A DNA stretch of 64,000 nucleotides from contig JBQTIU010000024.1 in assembly GCA_052387815.1 (NCBI GenBank), positions 3,028 through 67,027 on the forward strand, written 5' to 3'. The DNA is from Pseudomonadota bacterium. Lineage in GTDB: Bacteria > Pseudomonadota > Alphaproteobacteria > CACIAM-22H2. The stretch's first letter is position 1. Each line of letters starts with the position of its first letter. The notes under the pieces were generated by a model. The model was not told the origin of the DNA, made no database searches, and was given only the letters and a program-made list of their open reading frames with translations. The position numbers were made by a program, and so were the translations under genes. Below are positions 41,088 to 59,327 of the stretch, in pieces.

Positions 41088-41796
41088 GGCGGGCGTGCCG
41101 GCGCGCGGCGATCAGCAGCTCGGCGAGGCGCAGGTCCCAGGGGTCGTCGATGTCGAGCGAATCGCGTTCGTCCATGACGTAGCCGACCGAAGGATTCCCA
41201 TAGAGCGCGCCGCGGCCGAGTACGGCCGAGCGCACGATCAGGATCGCCGGCCCGTTGCGGGCGAACACCCTGGGCTTGTCCTGGCGGCGCAGGAGCTCGG
41301 GGCCGGGCCGGAACGGGGAGAGCACGCCGTCCTTCATGGTCAGTATCGAGACCGGATTGAAGCGGTGCGGCACCTCGACGACGCTGACCACGGTCTCCGC
41401 GCCGGCCCGCTCCATGAGCTCGATCGCCTCGTCGATATGCCGGCTCTCTCGCATGGGCGAGGTCGGCTGCAACAGCGCCACGGCCTCGACCTCGAGGCCC
41501 TCGCCGCGGGCCCAATCGAGGGCGTGGCGCATCACCGGCAGCATCGGCGCCTCGTCGCGGGCGAGCTCGGGCGGCCGCAGGAACGGCACCTCGAGCCCGA
41601 GCGAGCGCCCCACTGCCGCGATCTCGGGATCGTCGGTGGACAAGAGCACGCGGCCTAGGCGCTTGGCGGCGAGCGCCGCCTCGACGGTGTAGGCGAGAAG
41701 CGGCCGGCCGGCCAAGGGCGCCACGTTCTTGCGCGGGATCGCCTTCGAGCCGCCGCGCGCCGGGATGAGGCCGAGGACAGCGGAGCCGTCAATCAT
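41080..41796 (-). CDS. neuA: CMP-nonulosonate (acylneuraminate) cytidylyltransferase family
   Basis: LIPARGGSKAIPRKN P-loop-like motif as in NeuA/PseF/LegF, and 238 aa. Confidence 0.8.
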   Translation of the reverse strand: MIDGSAVLGLIPARGGSKAIPRKNVAPLAGRPLLAYTVEAALAAKRLGRVLLSTDDPEIAAVGRSLGLEVPFLRPPELARDEAPMLPVMRHALDWARGEGLEVEAVALLQPTSPMRESRHIDEAIELMERAGAETVVSVVEVPHRFNPVSILTMKDGVLSPFRPGPELLRRQDKPRVFARNGPAILIVRSAVLGRGALYGNPSVGYVMDERDSLDIDDPWDLRLAELLIAARRHARHA

Positions 41797-42903
41797 AAAG
41801 CCGTCGGCCGCGCAAGACGTTGCGCAGGCCCATCAGCGGCCGCTCGGCGGCGGCATGAACCAGCGTTGAAGCCGCGAGGGTTACGAGGAAAACGAATGCG
41901 AAGGCGATCGGTCCTGCAAGCGAGAGAAAAACCGAAATAGAAATGATCGGCACATGCAACAGGTAAACCGCGTAGGTGACGTCGCCGAGGCGCCGGTCGA
42001 CAAGCTTGACCCTGTCGGAAGGCGGAACGGCGATCAGAGCGCACAGCAAGGCGACGCCGGCGACAAACAAAACGGTTGTGGTCACGCTGTCGATCATGGG
42101 CGCATGGAGATTGTATTGGTAGTAGTGGTGCCCCGCCTGTACCAACGCGAAGAAGCCCAACAGAAACATGTGAAACCGGCGGCGCGTGGCATAGAAATAC
42201 ACCGCTGAGCCAAGGAGAAAATAGGGCGCGAACTGCAGGATGCCGTAGAACCTCACATAGCCGTTCATCCACCAGACGAAAGGGTAGAACGCGAGCGCCG
42301 CGACCGCCACGGCGCCCAAGCACCACTGGCGATCGGCGAGCGCGAACACGAGCCCGGCGAGAATGTAGAAGATGAGCTCGATGACGACCCAGCCGGCGAT
42401 CGGGATCACCAGGAGGTTGTTGCCTTGGCGCAGATAGGCGGGCAGCAGCGTCATATTGACGAAAAGCGCCCAGGGGTCGACACGTATAGGGAGCAACCCT
42501 ATGTCGATCGTGGGTATTCCCAACCCGATGAAAAGCGCATAGGCGAGAGCGGCGGCGACCCACCAAGTGGGGTAGATTCTGAGGAACCGATTGACGAGAA
42601 ACCGGCCGAACGACTTGCAATAGAACAGATCGAGGGCCTCGGATATGACGAAGCCGGAGACGACCAGGAACAGAAAACGCCAATGTTCCCCAAAGCCAAC
42701 GGTCGCAGATTCCCGGGCAGATACCCGCTCGTGTGGCTTACGAACACGAGCATCGCAAGCAGGAACCGGAACGAGCCGAGGAACCGGTAAGGATGGGCGA
42801 CGAAGCCAGCTCCGCGGAGGTCGGCAGGGGTCGCCGCCGGGATGTCTTCTTTCTTTATGGCAAGCGTGGCGTCCTTCGAAAGACTCATGGGTCCGGGCGT
42901 CAA
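41789..42903 (-). pseudogene. acyltransferase-3 (OafA-like O-acyltransferase) gene interrupted by a frameshift at an A4/T4 homopolymer near 42674-42677
   Basis: The N-terminal 75 codons (MTPG...LGNIGVF) are in one frame (ORF 42499..42903). The rest (FLFLVVSGFVISE...RIYPTWW, about 296 codons) is in another frame (ORF 41789..43054). Joined, they give a normal acyltransferase-3 of about 370 aa. Confidence 0.6.
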
Positions 42904-44051
42904 TACGCGATCCGCTTCTGGATGCCGACGGTCTTGGTCGACAGGATGTCGGCGATCCGCTGGCCGGCGTTGCCGTCGCCGTAGATCGCGTCCATGGCGT
43001 AGCGGCCGTGCTGGACCTGGCGGCGGATCGCAGCGGCGATCGCGCCCCGCTCATGGGGCGCGTCGATGACGTTGTGGCCGCGCTCGCGTCCCGCCTGCCG
43101 GGTGCCGATGTTGGCCACCGGCGCGCCGATATAGGCGCCCTCGCGGATGCCGCTCGACGAGTTGCCCACCAGGCACGCGGCGCGGGCCATCAGGCCGATA
43201 TAGGTCTCGGCCGGCAGGTTCTTGAAGAAATGCATGCCCCGGGCAAGGCCCCGCTCGCGCCACTTGCGGATGCCGCGGGCGATGTGCTCGGACCCGGCAT
43301 CGGCGTTGGGCCACAGGACGATGGCGGGGAGCCCCGTATCGCTGACCGCTTCGAGGCTCGCCGTGATCTGGCGCTCGCCCTCGCCGTATTCGGTCGTCAC
43401 CGGATGCTGGGCCACCACCAGGAACGGCCGCTCGAGGTCGAAACGCTCGCCGACCCCCAGCCTGAAAATGTCGGGACCAAGCGCCGCCTCGCCGTTGGCC
43501 AGGGTCTCGGCCACGAGATCGACGCGCGGGCACCCCACGAGGTGGACGTCCTCCGCGCGCTCGCCCAGCCTGATGATGCGCTCGCGCGCCCCGGGGCTGG
43601 CCGGGAAATGGATGTGGGCGAACTTGGTGACGGCATGCCGGATGCTCTCGTCGATCGTCCCCGAAACCTCGCCGCCCATGGTGTGCGCGATCGGGATGTT
43701 CATGTAAGCGGCGGCGAGGGTGGTCGCCATGGTCTCGAAGCGGTCGCCGACCGTGAGCACGATGTCGGGCTTCAGGCTCTCGAACACGGTGGGGAGTTCG
43801 AGCAGCCCGAGGCCGGTCGACTTGGCCATGGTCGCGGGCGTCTCGCCCTCGATCAGCATGTGGACCTTGGCCGCCGCCTCGAAGCCGTCGCGCTCGATCA
43901 GGTCGACGACCGCCCCGTAGCGGTCCAAGAGCGCCGAGGCGCCGACCACGACCTGGAGCGTCAAGTCGGGATGGGCCGCGATCGCCCGCATCGCCGACTT
44001 GATGGAGCTGTAGTTGGCGCGCGAGCCGACGACGACGCAAATCTTTCTCAA
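42900..44051 (-). CDS. neuC: UDP-N-acetylglucosamine 2-epimerase (hydrolysing), NeuC/LegG family
   Basis: RKICVVVGSRANYSS...HTMGGEVSG...HLVGCP motifs. There is no in-frame ATG; the predicted TTG start at 44051 forms a TTGA overlap with the neuB stop. Confidence 0.8.
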   Translation of the reverse strand: MRKICVVVGSRANYSSIKSAMRAIAAHPDLTLQVVVGASALLDRYGAVVDLIERDGFEAAAKVHMLIEGETPATMAKSTGLGLLELPTVFESLKPDIVLTVGDRFETMATTLAAAYMNIPIAHTMGGEVSGTIDESIRHAVTKFAHIHFPASPGARERIIRLGERAEDVHLVGCPRVDLVAETLANGEAALGPDIFRLGVGERFDLERPFLVVAQHPVTTEYGEGERQITASLEAVSDTGLPAIVLWPNADAGSEHIARGIRKWRERGLARGMHFFKNLPAETYIGLMARAACLVGNSSSGIREGAYIGAPVANIGTRQAGRERGHNVIDAPHERGAIAAAIRRQVQHGRYAMDAIYGDGNAGQRIADILSTKTVGIQKRIAY

Positions 44052-45040
44052 CTCAAATCCGTCCGTGCGAGCTTGTGGTCGGCGGGCAGCGCCCGGGCGG
44101 CGCGCCGGCCGACGACGTCCTGCCAACGGGCGGCCGAGATGCCGTCGCCCGGCTTCTTGAAGGCGAGGTCGGCGCGCGTCAGCGCCGTGCCGGCCGGGAT
44201 GGGCCGCGCGGTGACGATGCTCTTTTCGAAGATGCGCTTCATGTCGCGATAGGGGCCGAGGTCGTCCTTGTCGACGGGATGGCCCAGCATCGCCCACACG
44301 TCCCGCAAGGCCTCGGCGAGGCGCTTGAAGTCGGCGGGCTCCATGGCATTCGCCGCGTCGCTGCCATACATCAGGCGCGAGAAGGTGAAATGCTTCTCGA
44401 TGACCGTGGCGCCGAGCGCCGCGGCGGCGAGCGCGGCGGCGGGGCCGTCGGTGTGGTCGGAAAAGCCGACCGCCACCCCGTAGCGGGCCCGCATTTCGCC
44501 AAGCACGTTCAAGCCGACGCGCTCGGGCGGACAGGGGTAGAGCGAGCTGCATTGCAGGACGACGAGCGGCCCGCCGCGCCGCAACACCGCGACCGCGGCG
44601 TCGAGCTCCGCCCAGTCGCTCATGCCCGAGGACAACAGAACCGGCTTGCCGGTGGCGGCAATCCGTTCGAGGAGCGGCAGGTTGGTGACCTCGCCCGAGG
44701 GAATCTTGTAGGCGCCGACTCCGACCTCCTCCAGGAGGTCGACCGCCTCGAGGCTGAACGGCGAGGACAGGAACTCGACCTTGTGCGATTCCGCATGCGC
44801 CTTCAAGGCCCTCCACTGGTCGAGGGAAAACGCCGTGCGGCGGAAATAGGCGGCGCGCGGCTCGGCCTGGAAATAGGGCGGCGGCGGCGCGTCGGCGAGC
44901 GTCTCGGCCGCGGCGATGTGGGTCTGGAACTTGACCGCGTCGGCCCCGCACGAGGCCGCCGCCTCGATGAGCCTCGAGGCGTTGCCGAACGAGCCGTCAT
45001 GGACCGAACCGAGCTCGGCGATGAGCGAGCATGGGCGCAT
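44048..45040 (-). CDS. neuB: N-acetylneuraminate synthase family (NeuB/LegI/PseI)
   Basis: TIM-barrel NeuB motifs (IAELGSVHDGS, KFQTH) and a C-terminal antifreeze-like (SAF) domain. Confidence 0.85.
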   Translation of the reverse strand: MRPCSLIAELGSVHDGSFGNASRLIEAAASCGADAVKFQTHIAAAETLADAPPPPYFQAEPRAAYFRRTAFSLDQWRALKAHAESHKVEFLSSPFSLEAVDLLEEVGVGAYKIPSGEVTNLPLLERIAATGKPVLLSSGMSDWAELDAAVAVLRRGGPLVVLQCSSLYPCPPERVGLNVLGEMRARYGVAVGFSDHTDGPAAALAAAALGATVIEKHFTFSRLMYGSDAANAMEPADFKRLAEALRDVWAMLGHPVDKDDLGPYRDMKRIFEKSIVTARPIPAGTALTRADLAFKKPGDGISAARWQDVVGRRAARALPADHKLARTDLS

Positions 45041-45049: not shown

Positions 45050-46087
45050 CTAGGCGCGACCGAGAATCCGCCGCAAGCCTCCATAGACGGCATAAGGGAC
45101 CTTCTGCCAGGTGCGGTTGAGCCAGCGCTCGATGGGCGGGCGGGAGAGCGCACCTTCGATCGCCCGGATGTCCGCCTCGGGCGTCAGTCGGGCCTCCTCC
45201 ATGAGGCCGATGGCGAACGAATTGAAGCCGTAGACGAGCGCGATCGCGGCGAGGCGCTGGCGCGTCTCGGCCGACAAGTCCGTCCGCTCGGGATCGATGA
45301 CGAAGATGGCGTCGCCGGCGTGGATCAGGCGCCGGTCCGCCATGGCGGACAGCCTCGTGGGCGCGCGCGTATAGGCCTGATGGCCGAGCTCGAGGTCGAT
45401 GAGGCGCATCCCGTGGTCGCGGAGATAGACGTGCTGGTCGCCGAGCAGCGGGTGCTCCCGGTAGTAGGGGACGGCGACGAACTCGGTATACACGAACAGG
45501 ATGCGGCCGCGCTCGAGCAGGCCCTCGGCGCCTTTGAGGACCCTGAGTTCCGCCCCCTCGGTGTCGATTTTCAGGAAATCCACGGTCGCCTCGGGGTCGA
45601 GCACCCGGTCCAGCCGCCGGCACCGCATCGGCAAGGTGCGGTTGACCTTTCCGTGCACCTCGAGGAACGACTTGCCGGACCGGCGGTCCTTGCGTGGATA
45701 GGTCTGAAAGATGCGCACGCCGATCTCCGGCTGGGTCTCGCCCATCATGGTGCAGGCGCCGGGGCCCGCGGTGACGTAGAAGGGGCGCTCCTCCTCGCGA
45801 TCCCAGGCCGCGCAGTCGAAGTAGCGCAGCGAGCGGAAGGCCGGCATCCTCATGCCCGCCTTCATGGCATCGGTGTCGCCAGCCACCAGCTTGCGGTACT
45901 CCTCAGGGTTCGGTTCGAAGCCGATCAAGTCCGCGCGGCGGGTATAGGAGGCGGGGAGGAAGAACATGCCGTTGCGGGCGCCGACATCGACGACGGTCGG
46001 CGCGATTTTGGCCTCCTCCAGCGGCGCGAACACGATGTCGCCGACCGTCCGTCCGGTGGCCGTGCGGTAATCGAGGCTGTTCAGCAT
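45050..46087 (-). CDS. FkbM-family methyltransferase
   Basis: VDVGARNGMFF...IGFEPNP motif. The start is ATG 46087, preceded by GGGAGG; the alternative is GTG 46171. Confidence 0.65.
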   Translation of the reverse strand: MLNSLDYRTATGRTVGDIVFAPLEEAKIAPTVVDVGARNGMFFLPASYTRRADLIGFEPNPEEYRKLVAGDTDAMKAGMRMPAFRSLRYFDCAAWDREEERPFYVTAGPGACTMMGETQPEIGVRIFQTYPRKDRRSGKSFLEVHGKVNRTLPMRCRRLDRVLDPEATVDFLKIDTEGAELRVLKGAEGLLERGRILFVYTEFVAVPYYREHPLLGDQHVYLRDHGMRLIDLELGHQAYTRAPTRLSAMADRRLIHAGDAIFVIDPERTDLSAETRQRLAAIALVYGFNSFAIGLMEEARLTPEADIRAIEGALSRPPIERWLNRTWQKVPYAVYGGLRRILGRA

Positions 46088-46121: not shown

Positions 46122-47099
46122 TCAGGTCGCCTTGAGGCGCAAAGTTGGCTGCGCCTTGACGGAGGTGGCACCGAGCGCCCGCAGAACGTCGTTGCCGTCG
46201 AGCGCGAATTCGTCGGGGTTCGGCGGGATGGCAGCCTCGGTCGGCGCGCGCTCGCGCACCACCACGGTGGCCGGAAGGGCGGCGCGCCAAATCGCCAACT
46301 GTAGCTGGTGGCTCAGTCGGTTGGTGCTGCGCGAATCGTCGAGCACCACGAGCCGCAAGGTGGCGGCGACGTCGTCGAGGATCGGGGTCCAGTCGTCGAT
46401 GAGCAGGCCGTTCACGGAAAACAGGGAGGCCCGCATCCCCTTCTCCGCCATCTGCCGGGCGAGCCGGCGGCCTTGCGGGAAGGCGAGATTGAAGCAGACG
46501 ATGGTGGCGTCGGGCCCGCTCGCATAGCGGAACAGGGCGCCGTCGCCGAAGCACTCGACCGGTCCCTCGACGGCCTCGATCTCGTGGCGCAACAGCCGCT
46601 GGCTCACGGCGATGATCCGGAAGCCGGGGGCGACGAGATGCCGGCCGAAGATGGCGTCGGCGTCGTGACGGTTGCTCACCGTATAGGCGGGGATGCGGGC
46701 CATCGAACAGAAATCCCCGAGATTGTTGAGGCGCGATTGCGGCCCCTCGAAGCCGCTGTCGACGACGGCGGCGACGATGGAAAAGGACGCCCGCGGGGGA
46801 TAGAGCCGCACCATGTTGTAGGTGTTGACCAGATGGTCCGTCGACAGCAGGAGGAAATCCTGCTGCTTCATGAAAAAGGCCGAATCGACCCCTTCCAGCA
46901 TCAACCCGAAGCCCATGCCGACCAGCGCGTTCTCGCAGTTGGGCGTGTTGATGACCTTGAGCCCGTCACGGCTCTCCAGCCCCGCGGTCAGCCCAGCCAG
47001 CCGGCTGCCGGCGGCGATGTTCTGGCCGTAGAGTACGAAGGGCGCGCGGCCGGCCAGGAGCTTGCGGACCAGCGCGTTGAGGTAGCCGACGTAAGTCAT
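46122..47099 (-). CDS. TPP-enzyme E1 beta-subunit-like (transketolase C-terminal-like) protein
   Basis: MTYVGYLNALVRKLL...FVLYGQNIAAG pattern of 2-oxoacid dehydrogenase E1-beta and split transketolases. ATGA overlap with the alpha-like gene. Confidence 0.7.
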   Translation of the reverse strand: MTYVGYLNALVRKLLAGRAPFVLYGQNIAAGSRLAGLTAGLESRDGLKVINTPNCENALVGMGFGLMLEGVDSAFFMKQQDFLLLSTDHLVNTYNMVRLYPPRASFSIVAAVVDSGFEGPQSRLNNLGDFCSMARIPAYTVSNRHDADAIFGRHLVAPGFRIIAVSQRLLRHEIEAVEGPVECFGDGALFRYASGPDATIVCFNLAFPQGRRLARQMAEKGMRASLFSVNGLLIDDWTPILDDVAATLRLVVLDDSRSTNRLSHQLQLAIWRAALPATVVVRERAPTEAAIPPNPDEFALDGNDVLRALGATSVKAQPTLRLKAT

Positions 47100-48022
47100 T
47101 GCATCTCGACCTGCAGGCGCGCGAGCAGCGAGTCGGAAAGCGCCGCGATCTCGGCGACGCCGAACCGCTGCCCGAGCGCGTAGACCGGGTCGCCGTCGTC
47201 CTCGCGGATGATCGGCGGCGAGCACAGCATCACGCTCGGCGCGACGCCGTGATGGTAGTTGACGTGGCGGCCGGGACGGCCGGGTTCCTCGATGATCCAG
47301 TCGCCGAGGGTGTGGAGCAAGACCTCGACGAGGACGGGTGTGCGCCCGGCGATCGCCGCCGCGCGCAGCGCCGAGAGCGCCTCGCGATAGGCGCACACGT
47401 CGTTGCCGGCAAGCCGCCGGTAGGGGACGCCGAGGCCGCTGCCCAGGCGCTCGACGTCGATCGGGCAGCGGCGCTCCTCGATGCGCGTGTACATCGACCA
47501 CTGGTTGTTCTCGATCACCACCAGGGCCGGCAGCGCGAAGCTTTTCAAGAGCAGCAGGGACTCGTAGAACTGGCCTTCCTCCATGGCGCCGTCGCCGCTC
47601 ACCACGACGGTGATCCCCGGCCGGCCGGCCATCTGCCCGCCGAGCGCGACGCCGGCCCCGACGCCGAGATTGTTGCCGAGGACGCTCGAAGTGTAGACGA
47701 TCCCGGCCGCCGGATTGGCGAGGTTCATGGAGCCGAGCCGGCCCCCCGCTAGCCCTGAGGGCAGCAGGCGATATTCGTCGATCTCGGCGCGCAGCGAGGG
47801 TTGGCGGGCGAGGTTGTAATGGATATTGCGGTGGCTGAGCAGCAGGCGGTCCTCCTCGGCGAGCGCGGCGACCACGGCCACCGCCACCGCCTCGTGGCCG
47901 AGCCCGAGATGGACGGGGACCGGGAAATCGCGCGCCTTGTTGCGCTCGTTCACCAGCATCTGGGCGAGGCGCACGCGCACGACCTCCGCCGCCAACGCGC
48001 GATCGGCGTCAGAAACCGCCAT
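47096..48022 (-). CDS. TPP-binding E1 alpha-subunit-like protein
   Basis: GDGAMEEGQFYESL TPP-binding motif (GDG...N) and HLGLGHEAV region. Confidence 0.7.
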   Translation of the reverse strand: MAVSDADRALAAEVVRVRLAQMLVNERNKARDFPVPVHLGLGHEAVAVAVVAALAEEDRLLLSHRNIHYNLARQPSLRAEIDEYRLLPSGLAGGRLGSMNLANPAAGIVYTSSVLGNNLGVGAGVALGGQMAGRPGITVVVSGDGAMEEGQFYESLLLLKSFALPALVVIENNQWSMYTRIEERRCPIDVERLGSGLGVPYRRLAGNDVCAYREALSALRAAAIAGRTPVLVEVLLHTLGDWIIEEPGRPGRHVNYHHGVAPSVMLCSPPIIREDDGDPVYALGQRFGVAEIAALSDSLLARLQVEMQ

Positions 48023-48563
48023 GGGTCGCCTTGAAGGTCCTGAAATCGGGGTACGCCGCGTGCGCCGCCGAGACGAGCGGCCTGGCCTCGGGGGCGAGCG
48101 GCCAGTCGATGGCGAGGGTCGGATCGTTCCAGGCGATGCCGGCGCCCGAGGCGGCGGCATAGATGTTGTCGGCGGTGATCGCCAGGGCGGCGCCGTCGGT
48201 GAGCGACAAGGTCCCGTTGGCGAAGCCGCGCGGCACGAACAGCGCCCGCGGGCTATCGGCCGACAGCTCGAAGCCCTGCCAGGCGCCGAACCGCCCGTCG
48301 CGGCGCAGATCGACGACGACCCAGAACGTTCGCCCGCTCAAGGGCACGATCAGCTTCGCCTCGACATGGGGTGGCAACTGGACGTAGAGCCCCCTAAGCG
48401 TATTGGCCCGCGCCGTCCATTGGTAGATGCATTGCCGGACGCCCAAGTCGATGCCGGCCGGCGCCAGTTCCTCGGCATCGAAGGTGTGCACGAGCCATCC
48501 CCGCTCGTCGCGGAAGGGATCGAGCGGGACGAGCCGGGCGTGGTCGGGGCGGGTCATGCGCAT
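48009..48563 (-). CDS. RmlC-like cupin sugar-nucleotide 3,5-epimerase
   Basis: dTDP-4-dehydrorhamnose 3,5-epimerase fold pattern (FRDERGWL...RGLYVQ...FVPRGFANG). The start is ATG 48563. Confidence 0.65.
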   Translation of the reverse strand: MRMTRPDHARLVPLDPFRDERGWLVHTFDAEELAPAGIDLGVRQCIYQWTARANTLRGLYVQLPPHVEAKLIVPLSGRTFWVVVDLRRDGRFGAWQGFELSADSPRALFVPRGFANGTLSLTDGAALAITADNIYAAASGAGIAWNDPTLAIDWPLAPEARPLVSAAHAAYPDFRTFKATHGGF

Positions 48564-48630
48564 CCGGGCGCCGCAGAGCGGTCGAAGATCCGGAAACCGG
48601 GATCGGCGCACGGCATTGAGACCGCTTGCG

Positions 48631-49548
48631 TCATCGGGACGGCGCCAGCTCGAGATAATCGACGACCGTCTTGACGCCCATTCCAAGATCGATGCGCGCA
48701 CTCCAGCCGAGACGCGCGCGGGCCTTGTCGTCCGAGACCGGCCGGATGCTGGGGTTGTCGGGGTCGCGCTCGATCACGCGCGGGCGCCGGCCGAGCAGCC
48801 CAGCAGCGGTATCGATCACCTCGCCGAGCGAGACCAGTCGGGGTCCCTGGATGTTGAAGACCTCGAATCCGGGCACCCCGAGCACTGCCAGCACCGCGCC
48901 GGCGACGTCCTCGACATGGATGAACCTTCGCGCGGTGGCGCGCGATCCGATCGTCACGGCGTCCTTGGTCGCGACCTCATGGACCAGGGTGTCGACCGCC
49001 GACCAGTTGTCCCGGTGGGGTCCGTAGAGGATGCCGAAGCGCAACACGGTCGCCGGGCAGAAGCCCTGGGCGTGGCGCTGGCGCAAATTCGCTTCGCTGA
49101 CCAGCTTGGAAAGCGCGTATTCGGAGGAAAGGCGCGCCGGGTCGATGGCGTCGGTCTCCTTGCGGGGCGCGTCCATGGGGAAGGAATCGTAGACCCATTC
49201 GCTCGACGCGAAGACGAACTGGCGAGCCCCGCGCGCCGCCGCCGCGTCCATGAGGGCGAGATTGCCGATGACGTTGACCTCGAAGCAGGCCCTCGCGCGG
49301 CCGCGGCATTCCGAATCGCGCGCCAGCGCCGCAAGATTGACCACGGCATCGACGCCTTCCGGTATGAGGTCGGCGATCCGCTGGTCCCTGATGTCGGCAA
49401 CATGGCAGTCGGGGCGGCCGGTGGGCTTGAGATCGACGCCGCTCACCGCGATTCCGGCAGCATCGCACTGGGCGAGCAGGCGCCGGCCGACGAAGCTTGC
49501 GGCGCCGGCCACGAAGATGCGCTTGGGCTCGGCGGCGGTCCCGGTCAT
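48631..49548 (-). CDS. NAD-dependent epimerase/dehydratase (SDR)
   Basis: IFVAGAASFVGRRL Rossmann motif and a YALSK catalytic motif. Confidence 0.7.
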   Translation of the reverse strand: MTGTAAEPKRIFVAGAASFVGRRLLAQCDAAGIAVSGVDLKPTGRPDCHVADIRDQRIADLIPEGVDAVVNLAALARDSECRGRARACFEVNVIGNLALMDAAAARGARQFVFASSEWVYDSFPMDAPRKETDAIDPARLSSEYALSKLVSEANLRQRHAQGFCPATVLRFGILYGPHRDNWSAVDTLVHEVATKDAVTIGSRATARRFIHVEDVAGAVLAVLGVPGFEVFNIQGPRLVSLGEVIDTAAGLLGRRPRVIERDPDNPSIRPVSDDKARARLGWSARIDLGMGVKTVVDYLELAPSR

Positions 49549-50468
49549 CGTCCCACCATCGCGCCGATTTCGCGCACGATCAGCTCCATCGATCCCTTCC
49601 TTGGCGCATAGCCGATCTTCGCCGCCGCGTCATGGCGGCTGATGGTCGCCGGCTTGACGAGATCGCGATCGGCGAAATCCGCCGCGCCCTCGATCCGGAA
49701 TTCGAGCCCGTAGCGCTGGGCCAGCACTTCGATGACCTCGACCTTGGTGACCGGCGCGGCGCTGCAAATATCATAGGCGTTGTTCGGCGCTCCGGCCGCG
49801 ACCAAAAGCCGGATCAGGTGCGCGAGATCGTCGGCGCCGACAAAGTCGCGCACGAAATTGTGGGCCGAGGTCAGGAACCGTTGCCCGTTGACGAGGCAGT
49901 TGGCAAGTTCGGCGAGGAAGAACCCGCCGTCGAGATCGATCTGCCGGCTGAAATAGCCGAACACCCGGATGTCGGCAATCCTAAACTGCGACAGGGCGCG
50001 ATGCCTCGCCTCGGCCACGAGCTTGGCGAGCGCGTAGACATGCCGCGGCCCCAGCCGATTGACCGGCAGGCGGGCTTCCGAGTCGGGTCCCGCCGCCTCG
50101 CCCTCGGCGAGGGAATAGATGGCCCCGGTGCTGAGGAAGACATAGATCGTCGCCGGGCGTCGCGCCACATAGTCGAGGACCAGATCGTCGACCTTAGCGG
50201 TCCAGCCCAAGAGCTCGGCGCCGGCCCTGTCGATCGCGCGCGGGTCGCCCGGGCCGGCGGCATTGATCACGACCTCGCACTCGGCGCCCGCGAAGGCCGC
50301 GTAGGGGCCGACCTCGATCCCGCGCCGGTCGGCCAGGTTGGCGTCGAGGTAGGCCTCGATCGAGCGCGGGTTGCGGGCGAACAGGGACAGGCGCGCCTGG
50401 TCGCGGAACTCGCCGACCAGTCCCTTGGCGATGTGGCCCGAGGCGCCGAGGATGGCGATGGTTCGCAT
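49545..50468 (-). CDS. NAD(P)-dependent sugar reductase/epimerase (SDR-like)
   Basis: IAILGASGHIAKGL Rossmann motif and a YALAK motif. The start is ATG 50468. Confidence 0.6.
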   Translation of the reverse strand: MRTIAILGASGHIAKGLVGEFRDQARLSLFARNPRSIEAYLDANLADRRGIEVGPYAAFAGAECEVVINAAGPGDPRAIDRAGAELLGWTAKVDDLVLDYVARRPATIYVFLSTGAIYSLAEGEAAGPDSEARLPVNRLGPRHVYALAKLVAEARHRALSQFRIADIRVFGYFSRQIDLDGGFFLAELANCLVNGQRFLTSAHNFVRDFVGADDLAHLIRLLVAAGAPNNAYDICSAAPVTKVEVIEVLAQRYGLEFRIEGAADFADRDLVKPATISRHDAAAKIGYAPRKGSMELIVREIGAMVGR

Positions 50469-50652
50469 CGGCTCGTTCGTGGCCGAGGGAGGCCGCCCTG
50501 GGGCGCTCACCCGCACGCGGCGCTATGCCTACGCCTTCGCGGCCGGCGAAAGCCGACGCTTGATCGACTGTCCACTGCCCGGTCTTCCATCAAAAGTGGG
50601 CGGTTTCACGGGCAAAGTCGGCTGACCGCTCCTTGCACATACATCGCGTCCT

Positions 50653-51417
50653 TCAGCGAATGCGTCGCACAAAACCACCCCGCCAATAAGTCACCCACCG
50701 GTCGACCTGACCCTCGTTAAACGCAAACGGCGGCTCTACGATCGCGAAGTCAGGGTTTAGCGCCACGAATGCCTCCGCCGCCGCTTTCGGATGGTTCCAA
50801 CTCCAATCAGGTGCGGTTCGCGGGCCGCCCGCGACCAACTCTTTGATCCCGTCGGCAGCAATAATGTACGACCCAACGGAGACCAGGGAGGCATAAGCTT
50901 CGAGTTCGGCCAACACGTGATCCTTGGTGTGATTGCTGTCGAGGATGACCAGCACTTTTTCTCCGGGGGCAACCAATCGGCAGACTCGATCGACTGTGGC
51001 TGGAGCAATCGAACTACCCTCAACCAATGTGATGAACGGGAACAACTCATGCGCTTGGATCGCGACGAGATTGTGCGGCCGAATCTCGATGTCGATGCCG
51101 ATGACGCGACCACGTCCAATCAGCCGACAAAGGCTGGCATAGAACACCAGCGAGCCTCCGTGCGCGATTCCCGTCTCGACGATCACGTCGGGCTTGATCG
51201 AATAGACCACCTCCTGCATCCTGACCAGGTCCTCGGCAAGCTGAATGATCGGACGGCCGAGCCACGTGAAGCTATACACGTGCTTAACGTCCCAGCCACA
51301 ACGCAGCCACGCTTCTGACGCCAAAGCGAAGGCCTCCGGCGAGCTCATCGGATAGACGACTTCAGTACCGTCGCTTTCGACGATCACCACTGACCGCTCC
51401 GAGTCGATTTTGATCAC
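50653..51417 (-). CDS. CmcI/cephalosporin-hydroxylase-family class I methyltransferase (sugar O-methyltransferase-like)
   Basis: VIVETGIAHGGSLVFYA motif as in CmcI/rhamnosyl O-MT family. GC content is clearly lower than in neighbouring genes. Confidence 0.7.
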   Translation of the reverse strand: MIKIDSERSVVIVESDGTEVVYPMSSPEAFALASEAWLRCGWDVKHVYSFTWLGRPIIQLAEDLVRMQEVVYSIKPDVIVETGIAHGGSLVFYASLCRLIGRGRVIGIDIEIRPHNLVAIQAHELFPFITLVEGSSIAPATVDRVCRLVAPGEKVLVILDSNHTKDHVLAELEAYASLVSVGSYIIAADGIKELVAGGPRTAPDWSWNHPKAAAEAFVALNPDFAIVEPPFAFNEGQVDRWVTYWRGGFVRRIR

Positions 51418-51562
51418 GGTTCTTCAACCTCTCTCGAAATGCGGCCACCAGAGATTCAAAGTCATCCAGGCGGCGCTTCGGACGGCGCCCAAACTCATCA
51501 CGCAGCGGTCGGGCAGCGCGCTGCCCGCCAGCCAAAAATTAACCCGCTCGTGAATAATTCGG

Positions 51563-53470
51563 CTAGGCCTCGAATACCAAATCTTCGTACCGGCGCTCGT
51601 CCCGCGGCGGCTGGCCGGGCAGGAGGCGCGGGATTTCCTTGCCCTTAAAGTCGCGGGTCCGCAAGTCGTCGACCGCCAACCCGAACGCCTCGAGCCGTTC
51701 GCGCCAATAGTTCGAGCCGTCGAGCTTCGCCTGCAGCCGGTCGATGACGCCGGGCTCGATCGTGCCGTCGAGCTTGTGCTGCAGATAGCCGATGAAATAC
51801 AAGGCCAGGCCGTGCTCGGGCGAGATGACGTCGCGAAGCGTGTTCAGGTTCTTGAGCTGCTGCTCGATCTTCGCCGGCCGGTCCTCGGAGAACAGGCGGT
51901 GAAAATTGAGGTGATAATTCATGTAGAACCAGATGTCGGTGATTTGCTGCGGCGTCGGCACCGCATCCATGGGGATGGCGCAAAACGCCTCTTCGAACCC
52001 GACGGTCGCCAGGCGCAGGCCGAGGTCGATCTCGTCCTGTTTGCCGTAGCCCCCGGCCATGAATCGCACTTCCGAGCTGCCGACGTTCTGGATGAGCCCC
52101 TGCTCGACCATCGAGTCGTAGATGGGCGTGTTGGGAAGTGGCTGGAGCGGCGTGATCCCGCACCAGTCGAGGTCCATGTGGCGCGCGACGTTGATGGTGT
52201 CGTTGATCATCGCCAGGGTCTCGCCCGGGAACCCGATCATCAGGAACACGCGGGAGTGGATCTGCTCGTAGCGCCGCAGGACCTCGGCCGCGGCGAGGAA
52301 GGTGCGCACCGTGCCCGGCTTCTTGATCTGCCGCAGGACCACCGGGTTTCCGGATTCCATCCCGATGTTGAGCGCGATGCAGCCGCTTTCGGCCATGGCG
52401 TGCACGATCTCATCGGTGCACGAGGCGGCGATCAGCCCGTTGGTCGCATCCCAGGTCATGCCCAGCCGGCGTTTGACCATGCCGTTGAACAGGGCGATCG
52501 CGCGGGCGTGGTCCTTCAACAGATCGTCGTCGAGCCAGACGAAATGGCCGATGCCGTGCTCGTTTTTCAACAACTCGAGCTCGTCGAGCACCGAATCGAC
52601 CGAACGCTGCCGGACCGCCTTGCCGTTGAAATTCCGTACGCTGCAGAAAGTGCACTGGGCACGGCAGCCGCGGTTCGAGAGCACGGTGGCAAAACGCGTG
52701 CCGGGCGGCTTGAAGCCGTGGAAATTGCCGATGACGCCGACCTTAGAGAGATCGCGGACGTTGAACAGATCGTAGGCCGGGATGACGTCAATTTCCCCGG
52801 CCGTGGGCTGGCACTGGGCAAGGAACCGGAACCGTTCCCGCCCATCGTCGAGGATCACCTGCCCGAGACCGGTCGGTCCGAGTTCGCCGCCGACCGCCCG
52901 GCAGAACAGCTTGATGGCGACATCGCCCTCCCGCAGGAAGGCGATCCGTGCCGCCTTGATGTCGTCGAGCACGCGCTCGACGTCGTTGTTCACATGCACC
53001 CCGCCGATGGCCACCGGGATGCCCGAAAGCGCCGCATGTTCGCACACGCGCTTCAACGAGGCGTGCGTCATGGTGAACATGCACGTCACGCCGATCAAAT
53101 CCGGCTTGAAGCCCGCGATGGCGTCGTCCAGGGCCGCCTGCCAAGTGCGGTCGAAATCGAACTCCCGCTTCGAGGCGGCGGCGCGCGCCGCCTTCAGGAC
53201 CTCGTCGTTCAGGTTGACGATCTTGGGCTCGACGCCGATCGCGCGCAGGTGCTGCGCCAGCACGCCCAAGCCATAGGGCGGATAGTTGGGATAGCGCTTG
53301 CGCCGTGCCGTCGCAAAGCGGAACAGGCCGGACTCGCCGTCGGGCGGGTTGACCAACAGGACGCGCTCGATCTTGCCGCGCGGGAAATGGCGAGCGAAAA
53401 AGGCCTCCACCGCCGCCGCGTCGTGCGGCACCGACAAGGGATCGACGGCAACCGATGCGCACCCGCTCAT
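51563..53470 (-). CDS. B12-binding-domain radical SAM protein (class B radical SAM methyltransferase-like)
   Basis: N-terminal cobalamin-binding Rossmann region, then a CxxxCxxC cluster motif (RGCRAQCTFCSV). 635 aa from ATG 53470. Confidence 0.8.
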   Translation of the reverse strand: MSGCASVAVDPLSVPHDAAAVEAFFARHFPRGKIERVLLVNPPDGESGLFRFATARRKRYPNYPPYGLGVLAQHLRAIGVEPKIVNLNDEVLKAARAAASKREFDFDRTWQAALDDAIAGFKPDLIGVTCMFTMTHASLKRVCEHAALSGIPVAIGGVHVNNDVERVLDDIKAARIAFLREGDVAIKLFCRAVGGELGPTGLGQVILDDGRERFRFLAQCQPTAGEIDVIPAYDLFNVRDLSKVGVIGNFHGFKPPGTRFATVLSNRGCRAQCTFCSVRNFNGKAVRQRSVDSVLDELELLKNEHGIGHFVWLDDDLLKDHARAIALFNGMVKRRLGMTWDATNGLIAASCTDEIVHAMAESGCIALNIGMESGNPVVLRQIKKPGTVRTFLAAAEVLRRYEQIHSRVFLMIGFPGETLAMINDTINVARHMDLDWCGITPLQPLPNTPIYDSMVEQGLIQNVGSSEVRFMAGGYGKQDEIDLGLRLATVGFEEAFCAIPMDAVPTPQQITDIWFYMNYHLNFHRLFSEDRPAKIEQQLKNLNTLRDVISPEHGLALYFIGYLQHKLDGTIEPGVIDRLQAKLDGSNYWRERLEAFGLAVDDLRTRDFKGKEIPRLLPGQPPRDERRYEDLVFEA

Positions 53471-53706
53471 GATCCGGAACCCCGAGTCATTCGCTGTTGT
53501 CGTCCTTGGGCCGACCCGCCCGTTTGCCGCGCCTTCGGCCGTCACCCCGATCTCTTGGGAATAGTACGGCGAACCGCCCGGCGGAACAAGCGATTACCCG
53601 AATGGAGCGTCCACATATCCAAGAACATACCTAGAAATGGCTATATTCGAACACCGACTTGCCCGCTGTTGCCAATACCTTTCCGGGCCACCCGGCGAGG
53701 GCCCGC

Positions 53707-54930
53707 TCAAATCTCCCGCACGTCGGGGACCGGCACCAGGAAGCGCCCGCCTCGGCGCCGGTACTCCGCCTGCTGGGCGACGATCTCCTCGGCGAAGTTC
53801 CAGGCCAGGATCAAGAGGTAATCCGGCCGGTCGGCGAGCAATCGATCGGGCGCCACGACCTCGATATGGGTGCCGGGGGTCAACCGGCCCTGCTTCAACG
53901 GGTTGCGGTCGGCGATATAGTCGATGTCCGCCGGCCCCAGCTCGAGAAAGCTTAGCAGGGTGTTGCCCTTGGCCGGCGCCCCGTAGCCCGCGACCCGGCC
54001 GCCGGCCCGGCGGATGCGTTCGAGCCGCGCCCTCAGGTTCGATTTGTTGGCAAGGATGCGCTGGGCGAAGCCCCGGTAGGTCCCGATGTCGCGCAGGCCG
54101 CGGCGCTCTTCCATGGCGAGCAGCGCGGCCACCCCCGGATCAGGCCTCGCCCGTCCCTGGCGCCGTATCCATGCCCTGAGCTGGCCGTGATGGATCGCCA
54201 AGCGCTCGACGGCGACGATCTCGAAGCCGTGGAGCTGGAACAAACGCTGCATGGGCCCGAGCGACCAATACGACACGTGCTCGTGGTAAATGGTGTCGAA
54301 CGCCAACATGTCGAGGAGGTCCGTGAGGTAATGCGCCTCGAGCACCACCACGCCGTCGGGAGCGAGCGCGAGATCGATGCCGTCGAGGAACCCGTGCAGG
54401 TCGGGGATGTGGGGAAAGGTGTTGGTGAACGCGAACACCCGGACCGGGCCGTGGTCGTCGCGGATGCGGCGCGCCGTCTCGGGGTTGAAGAACGCGGTCA
54501 TGACCTCGATGCCGTTCAAGCGGGCGAACGGCGCGAGATTGGCGGCCGGATCCACCCCCAGCGTGCGCGCCGGGCACGCCCGGCGAAAGCCGTCGAGCAG
54601 CGTGCCGTCGTTGCAGCCGATATCGACGACCAAATCGCCGGGCCCAAGCGGGATTCGCTCGGCGGCCGCGCCGGCGAGAGAGCGCAGATGCTGGGTGAGC
54701 GTGTCGGATGCCGACGACACGTAGAGGTAGTCCTCGAACATGGCCGCGGGCGGGACACGCTCGGTCAACTGGACGTGGCCGCAATCATGGCAGTACCCGA
54801 TCCTGAGCGGGAATTTCGGCTCCGCGGCGGCGGCCAGCTCGGCGGCGGTCACGAACTTGTTCGCCAACGCCATCGGCCCCAAGTCGAGGAACGTCTCGAC
54901 GGTGGCGGAACGGCATACGATGCAGCTCAT
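53707..54930 (-). CDS. NDP-hexose C-methyltransferase (TylC3/EvaC-like, zinc-ribbon N-terminus)
   Basis: CxxC...CxxC N-terminus (MSCIVCRS...CHDCGH), SAM motif VVDIGCNDGTLL, and a C-terminal C-methyltransferase domain. Confidence 0.75.
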   Translation of the reverse strand: MSCIVCRSATVETFLDLGPMALANKFVTAAELAAAAEPKFPLRIGYCHDCGHVQLTERVPPAAMFEDYLYVSSASDTLTQHLRSLAGAAAERIPLGPGDLVVDIGCNDGTLLDGFRRACPARTLGVDPAANLAPFARLNGIEVMTAFFNPETARRIRDDHGPVRVFAFTNTFPHIPDLHGFLDGIDLALAPDGVVVLEAHYLTDLLDMLAFDTIYHEHVSYWSLGPMQRLFQLHGFEIVAVERLAIHHGQLRAWIRRQGRARPDPGVAALLAMEERRGLRDIGTYRGFAQRILANKSNLRARLERIRRAGGRVAGYGAPAKGNTLLSFLELGPADIDYIADRNPLKQGRLTPGTHIEVVAPDRLLADRPDYLLILAWNFAEEIVAQQAEYRRRGGRFLVPVPDVREI

Positions 54931-54947
54931 CGCCGGTGCTCGCCCCC

Positions 54948-55949
54948 CTACTCGACGACCGCGTTGATCACCCGCACGCCTTGCGGCTCATAGCCGACCG
55001 CGAGCTCGAGGAGCTCGCCGAGCGAGCGCCGGATCGGGGCGTGGCGCTCCGGGGCCGCGATGAACATCAGGAAGCCGCCCCCGCCCGCCCCGCAAATCTT
55101 GCCGCCATAGGCCCCGGCCGCCATCGCGCGGGCGTACCAGTCGTCGATGCGGTCGTTGGTGATGGTCGAGGCGAGGCCGCGCTTGATCTCCCAGCCCCGG
55201 CCGAGCGCGGCGCCGAAGGCGGCCGGATCGAAGTCGCCGTTCAAGAGGTTGCGCAGCTCGTGCGCCTGGTCGCGCAGGCTCGCCAGGCGGTCGAAGTTGC
55301 GAGGCACGCCCTGCTTCTGCTCGTCGAGAATCTCGCCGGCATCGCGCTCGATCCCGGTCCAGAATACCAGCACGTAGTCGAACAGGCGCTCCATCTGGGA
55401 GGCGGGCAGCGGCAGCGGCTCGATCGCCACCTGGTCGTTCGGGTAGAACAAGATCAGGTTGAGGCCGCCGAAGGCGGCGGCGAAATGGTCCTGCTTGCCG
55501 ATCGGGCGGCCGAGCAGGGTCATCTCGACGTGGGCGGCCTCCTTGGCGATCTCGGCGCTCGAGACGCGCTCGTTGCGCATGACGTGCAGCGCCTGCAAGA
55601 GGCCGACGGCGAAGCTGCTCGACGAGCCGAGGCCGGAGCTCGCCGGCACGTCGCCGATCGTCGCGATATAGAGCGGCGGGTCGACCGACACCAGCCGCAG
55701 GCATTCGCGCGCGATGCTGTTCTTGATGTCGTCGAGCCGGTCGACGTTCTCGGACTCCGAATAGTTGAGCCGGTAGCGGCGATTGAACAGCTCGCTCACC
55801 CGCTTCACGGTTACGAACACGCGCTTGTCGATCGCCGTGCTCAACACGGCGCCGGTCTCGCGGCGATAGAAGTCGGGCAGGTCGGTGCCGCCGCCGGCGA
55901 AGCTCAAGCGCAACGGGGCGCAGGTGGTGACGTAGTTGACGACCGGCAT
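54948..55949 (-). CDS. hddA: GHMP kinase, D-glycero-alpha-D-manno-heptose 7-phosphate kinase-like
   Basis: PLRLSFAGGGTD and GLGSSSSFAV GHMP motifs. It sits in the heptose gene block. Confidence 0.75.
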   Translation of the reverse strand: MPVVNYVTTCAPLRLSFAGGGTDLPDFYRRETGAVLSTAIDKRVFVTVKRVSELFNRRYRLNYSESENVDRLDDIKNSIARECLRLVSVDPPLYIATIGDVPASSGLGSSSSFAVGLLQALHVMRNERVSSAEIAKEAAHVEMTLLGRPIGKQDHFAAAFGGLNLILFYPNDQVAIEPLPLPASQMERLFDYVLVFWTGIERDAGEILDEQKQGVPRNFDRLASLRDQAHELRNLLNGDFDPAAFGAALGRGWEIKRGLASTITNDRIDDWYARAMAAGAYGGKICGAGGGGFLMFIAAPERHAPIRRSLGELLELAVGYEPQGVRVINAVVE

Positions 55950-55951
55950 GC

Positions 55952-56401
55952 TCAGCCGTGCCTTACCGACCAGTCATAGGGGATGTCGTTCTTGAACGGG
56001 TCGATATAGATGAGCTCCTCGCGATCGTAGGGCAGGGTCGCGCAGTTGGCGAGGATCGCCATCTTGTCGCCGTACGCCTTGTAACCGTTGGTGATGCCGG
56101 GCGGGATCTGGACCAGGCAGTAATTGTGCTCGCCGATGAACAGCTCGACGAGCGCGTTGCGGGTGGGCGAAGCCTCGCGTCCGTCGAACAGCACCAGCTT
56201 GATCATGCCGGCGATGCAGCAGTTGTTGAGCGTCATCCGCTTGTGGATGTGCCAGGCCTTCACCACCCCGGGATAGCCGCACGAGAAATAGATCTCCCCG
56301 AACTCGAGGAAGTGCGGGTCGGTGCGCTTGAGCATGTGCATGACCATGCCCCGCTCGTCGGGGATCCTGGGCAAGGGAATGACCTTCACGCCGTCGATCA
56401 T
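55952..56401 (-). CDS. RmlC-like cupin epimerase (GDP-4-keto-6-deoxyheptose 3,5-epimerase-like)
   Basis: 149-aa cupin (DERGMV...GEHNYCLVQIPPGITNGY). ATGA overlap with the dehydratase gene. Confidence 0.65.
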   Translation of the reverse strand: MIDGVKVIPLPRIPDERGMVMHMLKRTDPHFLEFGEIYFSCGYPGVVKAWHIHKRMTLNNCCIAGMIKLVLFDGREASPTRNALVELFIGEHNYCLVQIPPGITNGYKAYGDKMAILANCATLPYDREELIYIDPFKNDIPYDWSVRHG

Positions 56402-59242: not shown

Positions 59243-59327
59243 GTCGCGGTCCAAGGGTTCGAGGGGGGTCCTGTCAGGCAAAGCGCTGCGTGACCCGGCC
59301 GAGATATTGCGCGCAGTCGAAGATGTC
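59112..59327. repeat. direct repeat copy 1 (216 bp, about 97% identical to 60341-60556): gmhA 5' end plus GT2 3' end junction
   Basis: Base-by-base comparison shows about 6 mismatches over 216 bp. Homology continues at protein level into the GT2-like remnant. Confidence 0.7.

Follow-up and report, generated by a model that had tools for sequence, protein, structure and literature searches.

In a 64-kb stretch of alphaproteobacterial DNA (contig JBQTIU010000024.1, from a metagenome-assembled genome labelled Pseudomonadota; hereafter the window), two adjacent genes encode proteins resembling the α and β subunits of 2-oxoacid dehydrogenase E1, and this pair closes a conserved operon of the heptose-tailoring type. 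The best reading of the pair is that it descended from a 2-oxoacid dehydrogenase E1 and no longer serves a lipoyl-E2. It very probably acts in nucleotide-sugar metabolism. By analogy with the E1-like pairs of actinomycete antibiotic pathways, we lean towards a function as a stand-alone heterodimeric thiamine diphosphate (ThDP) carboligase, similar to the E1 of pyruvate dehydrogenase (PDH), which would attach a two-carbon (C2) branch to a ketosugar derived from GDP-heptose.

Gene calls and domain assignments confirm part of the arrangement given in a preliminary description of this DNA, in which E1β, E1α, an RmlC-like epimerase and two extended short-chain dehydrogenases/reductases (SDR1 and SDR2) are contiguous at 46122-50468; the five genes are closely packed, in 46122-50516 if the full open reading frame (ORF) of SDR2 is counted (Table 1). 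All genes under discussion lie on the minus strand and have a high third-position GC, in a window of ~69% G+C. The stop codon of E1α overlaps the start codon of E1β (ATGA), indicating translational coupling, and the same 4-nt overlap between α and β is found in 37 related loci. E1α matches human PDH E1α by phmmer (1.8e-20), and its AlphaFold2 model (pLDDT 91.5) aligns with that protein in Foldseek at a template modelling (TM) score of 0.80. The GDG...N cofactor motif that had been reported for the α subunit is present as a ThDP/Mg motif GDG-X26-NN (G143 D144 G145 ... N172 N173) and is invariant in 22 homologues; the only TPP_enzyme match on this subunit is a short, partial TPP_enzyme_C hit at residues 115-186, over the C-terminal ThDP-binding motif. 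Despite the absence of any Pfam hit, even at E=10, the β protein is identified as an E1β by its phmmer match to the Thermus 2-oxoacid dehydrogenase β subunit 1um9_B (Table 1), by a family-profile match (7.1e-21) and by its AlphaFold2 model (pLDDT 84.9; TM 0.76 to 1um9_B in Foldseek). Its ThDP-activating residue Glu56, within the motif TPNxEN, is invariant in 24 homologues. E1α is ~50-60 residues shorter than canonical E1α subunits, and no confident sequence alignment extends past the last core strand. The catalytic histidine of the α subunit is His291-α in branched-chain 2-oxoacid dehydrogenase (BCKDH) and His263 in PDH; at its position in the window protein phmmer places W242, MAFFT places the invariant NYH257, and the profile alignment ends before the region.

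It is highly improbable that the pair is the true E1 of a pyruvate, acetoin or branched-chain 2-oxoacid dehydrogenase and lies in a polysaccharide locus by chance. The fold and the best PDB matches are those of E1 α and β subunits, and some homologues are labelled acetoin dehydrogenase or BCKDH E1 in their source annotation. However, no lipoyl, 2-oxoacid acyltransferase (E2) or dihydrolipoamide dehydrogenase (E3) domains occur among the annotated ORFs of the window, nor E2 or E3 domains among the annotated recurrent neighbour clusters of 78 related loci (Pfam), in agreement with the earlier view that this is not the E1 of a dehydrogenase complex. Scores also fall far under those of the curated models, with 118.5 bits for E1α on TIGR03182 against a cutoff of 393.85 and 23.8 bits for E1β on PRK11892 against a cutoff of 454, and the β subunit is blank in Pfam. 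The histidine of the E1β motif HSQ serves the reductive acylation of lipoamide. This residue, which is His146-β' of human BCKDH (the titles of PDB entries 1ols and 1olx refer to reductive acylation), is replaced in the window protein, where the conserved family motif is GPQS and the loop is devoid of histidine in all three of three alignments. The obligate synteny of the pair with sugar-nucleotide enzymes, and its fusions to them, further argue against a dehydrogenase. Given that no E2 or E3 was found, that the scores lie far under the PDH E1 models and that the β histidine is lost, the pair is very probably not a dehydrogenase E1.

Relatives of the pair are widespread. More than 120 E1α relatives are found in the database at 49-59% identity, nearly all of 300-327 aa, from Magnetospirillum, Magnetococcales, Nitrospirae, Chloroflexi and others; relatives of E1β are similarly spread and are mostly annotated 'hypothetical protein'. 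Scanning one genome per species gave 78 related loci with 10-kb flanks, of which 41 retain 8 kb or more of flanking sequence on each side (full loci). These 78 loci derive from Proteobacteria, Nitrospirae, Omnitrophota, Planctomycetes, Acidobacteria, Chloroflexi, Verrucomicrobia, Lentisphaerae, Gemmatimonadetes, Actinomycetota, Marinimicrobia, Saccharibacteria, Prochlorococcus, SAR11 and archaea, and the E1-like clade is present in at least 15 phyla. A tblastn search with E1α against 72,556 plasmids gave no match at 1e-10.

One recurrent, same-strand operon emerges from two analyses of these loci, namely tblastn of every window protein against the 78 loci and a window-independent clustering of all locus ORFs. 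It begins with an SIS isomerase, an extended SDR (cluster c9), a C-methyltransferase, a small cupin or RmlC, a GDP-type SDR, a nucleotidyltransferase fused to a HAD phosphatase (NT-HAD) and a GHMP kinase, and proceeds through a CmcI methyltransferase, an adh_short protein (c11), SDR1, a methyltransferase (c14) and RmlC to E1α and E1β; it often continues after E1β with a PhyH dioxygenase or with a B12-binding radical S-adenosylmethionine (SAM) or radical SAM-SPASM enzyme. This synteny, together with the annotation of the locus, bears out the placement of the pair among sugar-nucleotide tailoring genes in the preliminary description. In the full loci, E1α co-occurs with E1β (40/41), with SDR1, the GHMP kinase and the GDP-type SDR (37/41 each), with the C-methyltransferase (33/41), with NT-HAD (31/41) and with CmcI (30/41). 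SDR1 is the most faithful neighbour of E1α overall, with clustered orthologues in 62 and tblastn matches in 65 of the 78 loci; the orthologues lie on the same strand as E1α, a median of 1 kb upstream. The HddA-like kinase is found in 55 of the 78 loci, the RmlC-like gene in 51 (usually directly upstream of E1α), the C-methyltransferase in 47 and CmcI in 46. The small cupin, found in 33 loci, alternates with the RmlC-like gene at the same operon position, and has a median identity of 66% across phyla, compared with 37-50% for its neighbours. B12-radical SAM enzymes were matched by tblastn in 13/78 loci and form a clustered family (c16) in 15, while relatives of SDR2 occur in just 7/78 (cluster c45 resembles SDR2 by eye). 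The FkbM methyltransferase gene that directly follows E1β in the window occurs in 0/78 related loci; it is window-specific and lies outside the conserved module. The association of E1α with sugar genes persists down to 32-35% E1α identity, in SAR11 and Prochlorococcus.

Gene fusions provide further evidence of a link to sugar nucleotides. A profile search of 1.84 billion representatives yielded 313 clusters at E<=1e-30, and two of the best hits, the database proteins P0243 and P0244, were taken to be fusions of the family E1α. In P0243 (606 aa), a complete SDR1 orthologue runs in frame into an E1α of the family, its SDR part being 48% identical to the SDR1 of the window (E=6e-93). P0244 (543 aa, Candidatus Giovannonibacteria) joins a nucleotidyltransferase domain, 34% identical to that of the NT-HAD protein of the window (E=9e-38), to a family E1α; it lies within the same operon type, is directly followed by an E1β gene without a Pfam hit, and has a counterpart of the same architecture in a second cluster member, on two further contigs. 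Long ORFs in the E1α and E1β clusters resembled fusions but were not counted, as they were judged to be N-terminal over-extensions in GC-rich genomes. More canonical-looking E1_dh domains are fused to an extended SDR in P0370 (653 aa) and to a cytidylyltransferase-like domain in P0355 (483 aa); on the evidence of these sequences, the recruitment of E1α into nucleotide-linked metabolism may therefore have occurred more than once.

The scaffold on which the pair acts is likely heptose-derived rather than a CDP-6-deoxyhexose. A GDP-heptose-type scaffold is the best supported, because the best structural relatives of the activation genes are heptose enzymes. The GHMP kinase matches the heptose-7-phosphate kinases 3k85, 4usk (WcbL) and 4n3o at 1e-40 to 1e-42 in the PDB, compared with 1e-16 for the next kinase class, galactokinase, and reaches 2.1e-46 on the NCBIfam model of HddA, under its cutoff. 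In the NT-HAD protein, the HAD domain matches GmhB (4pnh, 5.8e-35; 163 bits on NCBIfam GmhB, cutoff 178) and the nucleotidyltransferase domain matches HddC (6jq8, 2.7e-17) among other proteins. The SIS isomerase scores 2.4e-25 on TIGR00441 (gmhA), again under the cutoff. Matches of the GDP-type SDR include GDP-6-deoxy-D-lyxo-4-hexulose reductase (2pk3, 1.9e-61) and GDP-D-glycero-D-manno-heptose 4,6-dehydratase (7us5, 3.3e-44), and the RmlC-like protein matches both RmlC (3ryk, 1.1e-27) and the GDP-4-keto-heptose epimerases of Campylobacter (8dcl, 8db5).

The preliminary description had instead taken the pair to be contiguous with rfbF and rfbG and embedded in a CDP-6-deoxyhexose branch, in which case it would branch the CDP-4-keto-6-deoxyhexose produced by these same-locus genes, giving a yersiniose-like octose. 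RfbF-like and RfbG-like genes and an adjoining SDR do occur in the same locus and on the same strand, forming a separate CDP-6-deoxyhexose module (Table 1), and relatives of RfbF at 44-57% identity are present in five related loci (L054, L039, L052, L033 and L041). However, the two RfbF/RfbG-like genes are not adjacent to the pair, but lie 7.6 kb downstream of E1β, separated from it by seven genes that encode the FkbM methyltransferase, NeuB, NeuC, an acyltransferase, a NeuA-like cytidylyltransferase, a 564-aa protein without Pfam match and a methyltransferase, with the NeuABC module thus falling between the two. Moreover, RfbF relatives of >40% identity occur in only 5/78 loci and RfbG matches of at least 39% identity in 3/78, as opposed to 55/78 for the heptose-type kinase, and the fusion partner of E1α in P0244, in a comparison with the GmhB-fused enzyme of the window, resembles the nucleotidyltransferase domain of that enzyme. 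We regard a CDP-4-keto-6-deoxyhexose substrate as improbable; a GDP-heptose scaffold is likely, given the frequencies of the kinase, NT-HAD and GDP-type SDR in full loci relative to the rarity of RfbF and RfbG. Of the branched CDP-sugar proposed earlier, the C2-branching mechanism is plausible, but the CDP-6-deoxyhexose scaffold is probably wrong, as heptose-type genes co-occur with the pair instead.

Enzyme families and fold, integrity of the cofactor sites, loss of the β histidine, synteny and fusions are shown by these analyses, and the reaction is assigned by analogy. In the pathway that we propose, a GmhA-like isomerase, an HddA-like kinase and the fusion of GmhB with a nucleotidyltransferase would together turn sedoheptulose-7-phosphate into an NDP-heptose, probably GDP-D-glycero-α-D-manno-heptose, with GDP as the activating nucleotide also being probable from the sequence matches. 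An SDR would then form a ketosugar, whether it is the GDP-sugar-type SDR acting by 4,6-dehydration or SDR1 acting by oxidation. SDR1 is a candidate ketosugar-forming oxidase or branch ketoreductase; the motif preceding YxxxK proved uninformative for sorting the SDRs into dehydratases and reductases. This ketosugar would be the substrate of the C-methyltransferase and of either the RmlC-like enzyme or the small cupin, and 4-ketosugars are indeed substrates of both RmlC and C-methyltransferases. On the model of AviB1/B2, Pau11/12 and KbDH-α/β, E1αβ would decarboxylate pyruvate to hydroxyethylidene-ThDP and add the C2 unit to the ring carbonyl, yielding a tertiary alcohol with an acetyl branch. 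A neighbouring SDR could subsequently reduce the acetyl group to 1-hydroxyethyl, and CmcI, the radical SAM enzyme and the FkbM methyltransferase may decorate the product. With a GDP-heptose scaffold, the predicted product would therefore be a branched sugar of nonose size rather than a yersiniose-like octose. We put C2 branching of a ketosugar by the pair, as judged from these precedents, at slightly better than an even chance.

Two other placements of the ThDP chemistry have to be weighed. The pair could act early, in the manner of transketolase or 1-deoxy-D-xylulose-5-phosphate (DXP) synthase, to build an unusual ketose phosphate such as an octulose phosphate, which the divergent GmhA-, HddA- and GmhB-like enzymes would then activate; the synthesis of the lincosamide octose through LmbR-LmbN-LmbP-LmbK-LmbO would be a parallel. 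E1, transketolase and DXP synthase have a common fold, and each of the activation genes with which the pair is tightly associated scores under the cutoff for a true heptose enzyme. However, the closest and best conserved neighbours of the pair, fusion partner included, are SDR1 and RmlC, which belong to the NDP-sugar stage, and the nucleotidyltransferase-E1α fusion likewise ties the pair to the nucleotide stage. A dedicated SIS isomerase is encoded in just 15/41 full loci (25 of all 78 loci), and most loci must therefore use the housekeeping GmhA and ordinary sedoheptulose-7-phosphate. An early role of this kind is quite unlikely. Somewhat less unlikely, yet still doubtful, is that the pair performs a different ThDP reaction on a nucleotide sugar or on a side-chain precursor, with hydroxypyruvate, 2-oxobutyrate or a longer 2-oxoacid as donor, a decarboxylation that supplies an aldehyde, or a C-C cleavage. 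The sequence does not reveal which donor is used, enzymes of the YerE type accept C2 to C8 donors (PMC9306805), and additional tailoring enzymes (PhyH dioxygenase, radical SAM-SPASM and B12-radical SAM) recur beside E1β. Against this, the products attributed so far to the sugar-branching enzymes of the αKADH2 group are all C2-branched, with pyruvate as donor where tested (PMC12247030, a 2025 review), and no aldolase or 2-oxoacid-forming genes are recurrent in the related loci.

The proposed branching of a GDP-heptose-derived ketosugar leads to a broader and more tentative reading, to which, taken as a whole, we give somewhat less than an even chance. In this reading, the E1-like clade would mark a widespread and undescribed pathway to a 6-deoxyheptose that carries a C-acetyl or C-(1-hydroxyethyl) branch, in most cases together with C- and O-methyl groups, and is at least as large as a nonose. 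The sugar would be displayed on the glycans of lipopolysaccharide, capsule or S-layer, and on the flagellin of some lineages, in carriers that include SAR11, Prochlorococcus, magnetotactic bacteria, Acidobacteria, bacteria of the candidate phyla radiation (CPR) and archaea. Nothing describing the E1/heptose module was found in a literature search. Several points weigh against the proposed pathway. The GmhA-, HddA- and GmhB-like proteins all score under the NCBIfam equivalog cutoffs, so that the sugar they activate may differ from D-glycero-D-manno-heptose itself. The GDP-type SDR of the window is nearer to the 4-reductase 2pk3 than to the heptose dehydratase. No sugar of the predicted structure was found in the literature examined, nor do we know of one. 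In addition, the branch of avilamycin and paulomycin has been proposed to form after glycosyl transfer, not at the NDP-sugar stage (PMC4425429).

Enzymes of further types accompany the pair in related loci. B12-binding radical SAM and radical SAM-SPASM enzymes (clusters c16, c21 and c46) recur around it, a hint that unactivated carbons in the sugar or in its branch undergo methylation or some other radical reaction; the B12-radical SAM enzyme of the window is a probable methylase of an unactivated carbon. A PhyH-family Fe(II)/2-oxoglutarate dioxygenase is encoded directly after E1β in 13 loci (cluster c19; e.g. L079, 11922-12665), and is absent from the window itself. AviO2, a non-haem iron enzyme, is implicated together with AviB1/B2 in formation of the two-carbon branch of avilamycin (PMC4425429).

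Flagellar genes, encoding a flagellin-like protein (Flagellin_C) or FliD, adjoin the E1/heptose module in loci from Alphaproteobacteria (L013, L021, L028, L032 and L050) and Acidobacteria/Bryobacterales (L055, L060, L069, L070 and L072). Large glycosyltransferases with tetratricopeptide repeats (TPR) are encoded there, with either a TPR+GT41 architecture (866 aa), which we take to be that of the flagellin glycosyltransferase FlmG, or a TPR+GT9-like architecture (651 aa, directly after E1β). This suggests that the product sugar glycosylates flagellin in the lineages with flagellar neighbours.

Table 1. Genes of the E1/heptose module and other features of the 64-kb window.
Feature	Coordinates	Strand	Size and best evidence
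E1-β-like subunit (Pyr domain + C-terminal domain)	46122-47099	minus	325 aa; PDB 1um9_B 9.4e-12 (phmmer)
E1-α-like subunit (ThDP diphosphate-binding PP domain)	47096-48022	minus	308 aa; Pfam E1_dh 1.1e-29
RmlC-like NDP-4-ketosugar 3,5-epimerase	48009-48566 (ORF to 48701)	minus	185 aa; dTDP_sugar_isom 1e-37
SDR1, extended SDR	48631-49548	minus	305 aa; Epimerase 4.5e-36
SDR2, divergent extended SDR	49545-50516, probable start 50468	minus	323 aa ORF; Epimerase 3.1e-12
CmcI/rhamnosyl-O-methyltransferase-family methyltransferase	50653-51417	minus	RMNT_CmcI 1.6e-66
B12-binding radical SAM enzyme	51563-53545	minus	Radical_SAM 2.1e-20 + B12-binding 4.8e-11
NDP-ketosugar C-methyltransferase, TylC3-type architecture	53707-54930	minus	Methyltransf_14 1.6e-53 + Methyltransf_13 zinc domain 3.5e-20
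HddA/WcbL-like GHMP kinase (heptose-7-phosphate 1-kinase type)	54948-55949	minus	PDB heptose kinases
Small cupin, sugar isomerase/epimerase-like	55952-56410	minus	152 aa; PDB 3ejk 'dTDP sugar isomerase' 3.2e-29
GDP-sugar-type extended SDR (4,6-dehydratase or 4-reductase)	56398-57420, start codon uncertain	minus	GDP_Man_Dehyd 1.5e-73
Sugar-1-phosphate nucleotidyltransferase fused to GmhB-type HAD phosphatase	57393-58646	minus	NTP_transferase + HAD domains
GmhA-like SIS isomerase	58643-59281	minus	SIS_2 1.1e-12
FkbM-family methyltransferase, directly downstream of E1β	45050-46087	minus	Methyltransf_21 7.7e-19
Nonulosonic-acid module	41080-45040	minus	NeuB, hydrolysing NeuC-type 2-epimerase, CMP-sugar synthetase-like protein, Acyl_transf_3 O-acyltransferase
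CDP-6-deoxyhexose module	35672-38471	minus	RfbF- and RfbG-like genes (36631-38471) and adjoining SDR
RfbF-like glucose-1-phosphate cytidylyltransferase	37701-38471	minus	
RfbG-like CDP-glucose 4,6-dehydratase	36631-37750	minus	
SDR adjoining RfbG	35672-36634	minus	
ORF without Pfam match	39393-41087	minus	564 aa; third-position GC >=0.90
ORF without Pfam match	61754-63100	minus	~448 aa; third-position GC >=0.90
ORF without Pfam match	34710-35660	minus	~316 aa
Heparinase II/III-like protein	27378-29912	minus	N- and C-terminal domains
Housekeeping flank	1397-6568; 11723-13342	plus; minus	NAD-specific glutamate dehydrogenase (1723 aa), MFS/Atg22-like transporter, ArsR-AHSA1 regulator, PurH

The genes from 50653 to 59281 lie upstream of the E1 pair on the same strand, mostly overlapping or a few bases apart. 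They form part of a large surface-polysaccharide locus that, from the annotation of the window ORFs, extends from ~13.5 kb to the end of the window and contains a PglF-like dehydratase, a DegT aminotransferase, a GFO/IDH oxidoreductase, GT4 and GT2 glycosyltransferases, a Wzy_C-like membrane protein, an asparagine synthase and several methyltransferases, as well as the trio of RfbF, RfbG and SDR, the NeuABC module and, among the glycosyltransferases, a heparinase II/III-like protein. Three ORFs of the locus lack any Pfam match and may be unrecognised glycosyltransferases or polymerases. The nonulosonic-acid module, placed between the E1 pair and rfbF/rfbG, is complete and is not co-conserved with the pair. 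NeuB was rejected as a functional partner of the pair, being present in 4/78 related loci, which makes ThDP-dependent decarboxylation of a ulosonic acid an unlikely role. The locus is flanked by housekeeping genes.

The closest functional precedents are found in actinomycetes, as the preliminary description had pointed out. PDH-E1-like α/β pairs are the accepted agents of C2 branching of ketosugars in antibiotics of these organisms (PMC4425429; PMC4753412; PMC12247030). They include AviB1/AviB2 and Pau11/Pau12, with Pau11 (325 aa) and Pau12 (345 aa) backed by knockout and complementation (PMC4425429; PMC4753412), and KbDH-α/β, which in vitro uses pyruvate as donor and ketone sugar analogues as acceptors (PMC12247030); the αKADH2 group also includes enzymes for aldgamycin and kosinostatin. 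Approximately 120 gene clusters are predicted to encode an E1-like branching enzyme, and no experimental structure is available (PMC12247030). The window pair shares with αKADH2 enzymes split subunits of similar size (308/325 aa, compared with 325/345 aa for Pau11/12), the lack of an E2 or E3 partner, a neighbourhood of deoxysugar tailoring genes, 3,5-epimerase and reductases, and, by analogy, the expectation that pyruvate donates a C2 unit to the ketone of a sugar. In contrast to the αKADH2 enzymes of antibiotic-producing Actinobacteria, the clade of the window pair occurs in Proteobacteria, Nitrospirae, Acidobacteria, CPR bacteria, Cyanobacteria, archaea and others, and its genes lie in loci for surface or flagellar glycans, not in gene clusters for antibiotics. 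Its upstream genes are of heptose type (GHMP kinase, GmhB-nucleotidyltransferase and GDP-type SDR) and not of dTDP-glucose type. The β subunit of the window is also too divergent for Pfam to recognise.

In Gram-negative bacteria, YerE and ErwE, which act in yersiniose and erwiniose synthesis, are single-chain ThDP carboligases of O-antigens, and YerE is indeed a different TPP enzyme from the window pair, as had been stated earlier (PMC9306805). The proposed chemistry is similar, in that an acyl branch would be placed on the ring ketone of a nucleotide-activated deoxysugar of a surface polysaccharide and then reduced by an NAD(P)H-dependent reductase (PMC9306805). However, YerE is a flavoprotein of the decarboxylase (acetolactate-synthase-like) superfamily that acts on CDP-3,6-dideoxy-4-keto-glucose as a single chain, whereas the window enzyme is an E1-type heterodimer; the single-chain TPP_enzyme_N/M/C architecture of the YerE type is not present in the window E1α (Pfam). 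With dehydrogenase E1 (α2β2) the pair shares its fold, the GDG...NN motif, the activating β glutamate, the α-β gene order and translational coupling, but it differs in having no E2 or E3 found, no HSQ histidine, a shorter α subunit and scores under all curated E1 cutoffs.

Upstream of the pair, the module resembles the GDP-6-deoxy-heptose pathways for capsules and O-antigens of Campylobacter jejuni, Yersinia pseudotuberculosis and Burkholderia pseudomallei. The enzyme families are the same as in those pathways (compared for GmhA, HddA/WcbL, GmhB, HddC, DmhA/WcbK, epimerases and reductases), and proteins from the pathways themselves are the best PDB matches. To our knowledge, the GDP-6-deoxy-heptose pathways involve no ThDP enzyme; the window module adds E1αβ, a C-methyltransferase, CmcI and often radical SAM enzymes.

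All C2-branching E1-like enzymes found in the literature, characterised or proposed, belong to actinomycete antibiotic pathways, and the type described for Gram-negative surface glycans in the literature examined is the unrelated YerE. If the proposed function is correct, the window pair would represent the first E1-type sugar-branching enzyme beyond actinomycete antibiotic pathways and the first to act on a GDP-heptose scaffold. It would imply that cell surfaces and flagella, those of abundant marine bacteria among them, bear a new class of branched higher-carbon sugars. It would also extend the set of substrates known for tertiary-alcohol-forming ThDP carboligases, a group in demand as biocatalysts, and provide an annotation rule that ends the naming of such genes as acetoin or pyruvate dehydrogenase. 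The prediction is testable in cultured carriers, namely Magnetospirillum sp. SS-4, Paramagnetospirillum magnetotacticum MS-1 and Jiella sp. LLJ827. Relative to the branching enzymes already known, the system differs in its scaffold, which is of heptose type, in its setting in surface glycan loci and in its taxonomic breadth.

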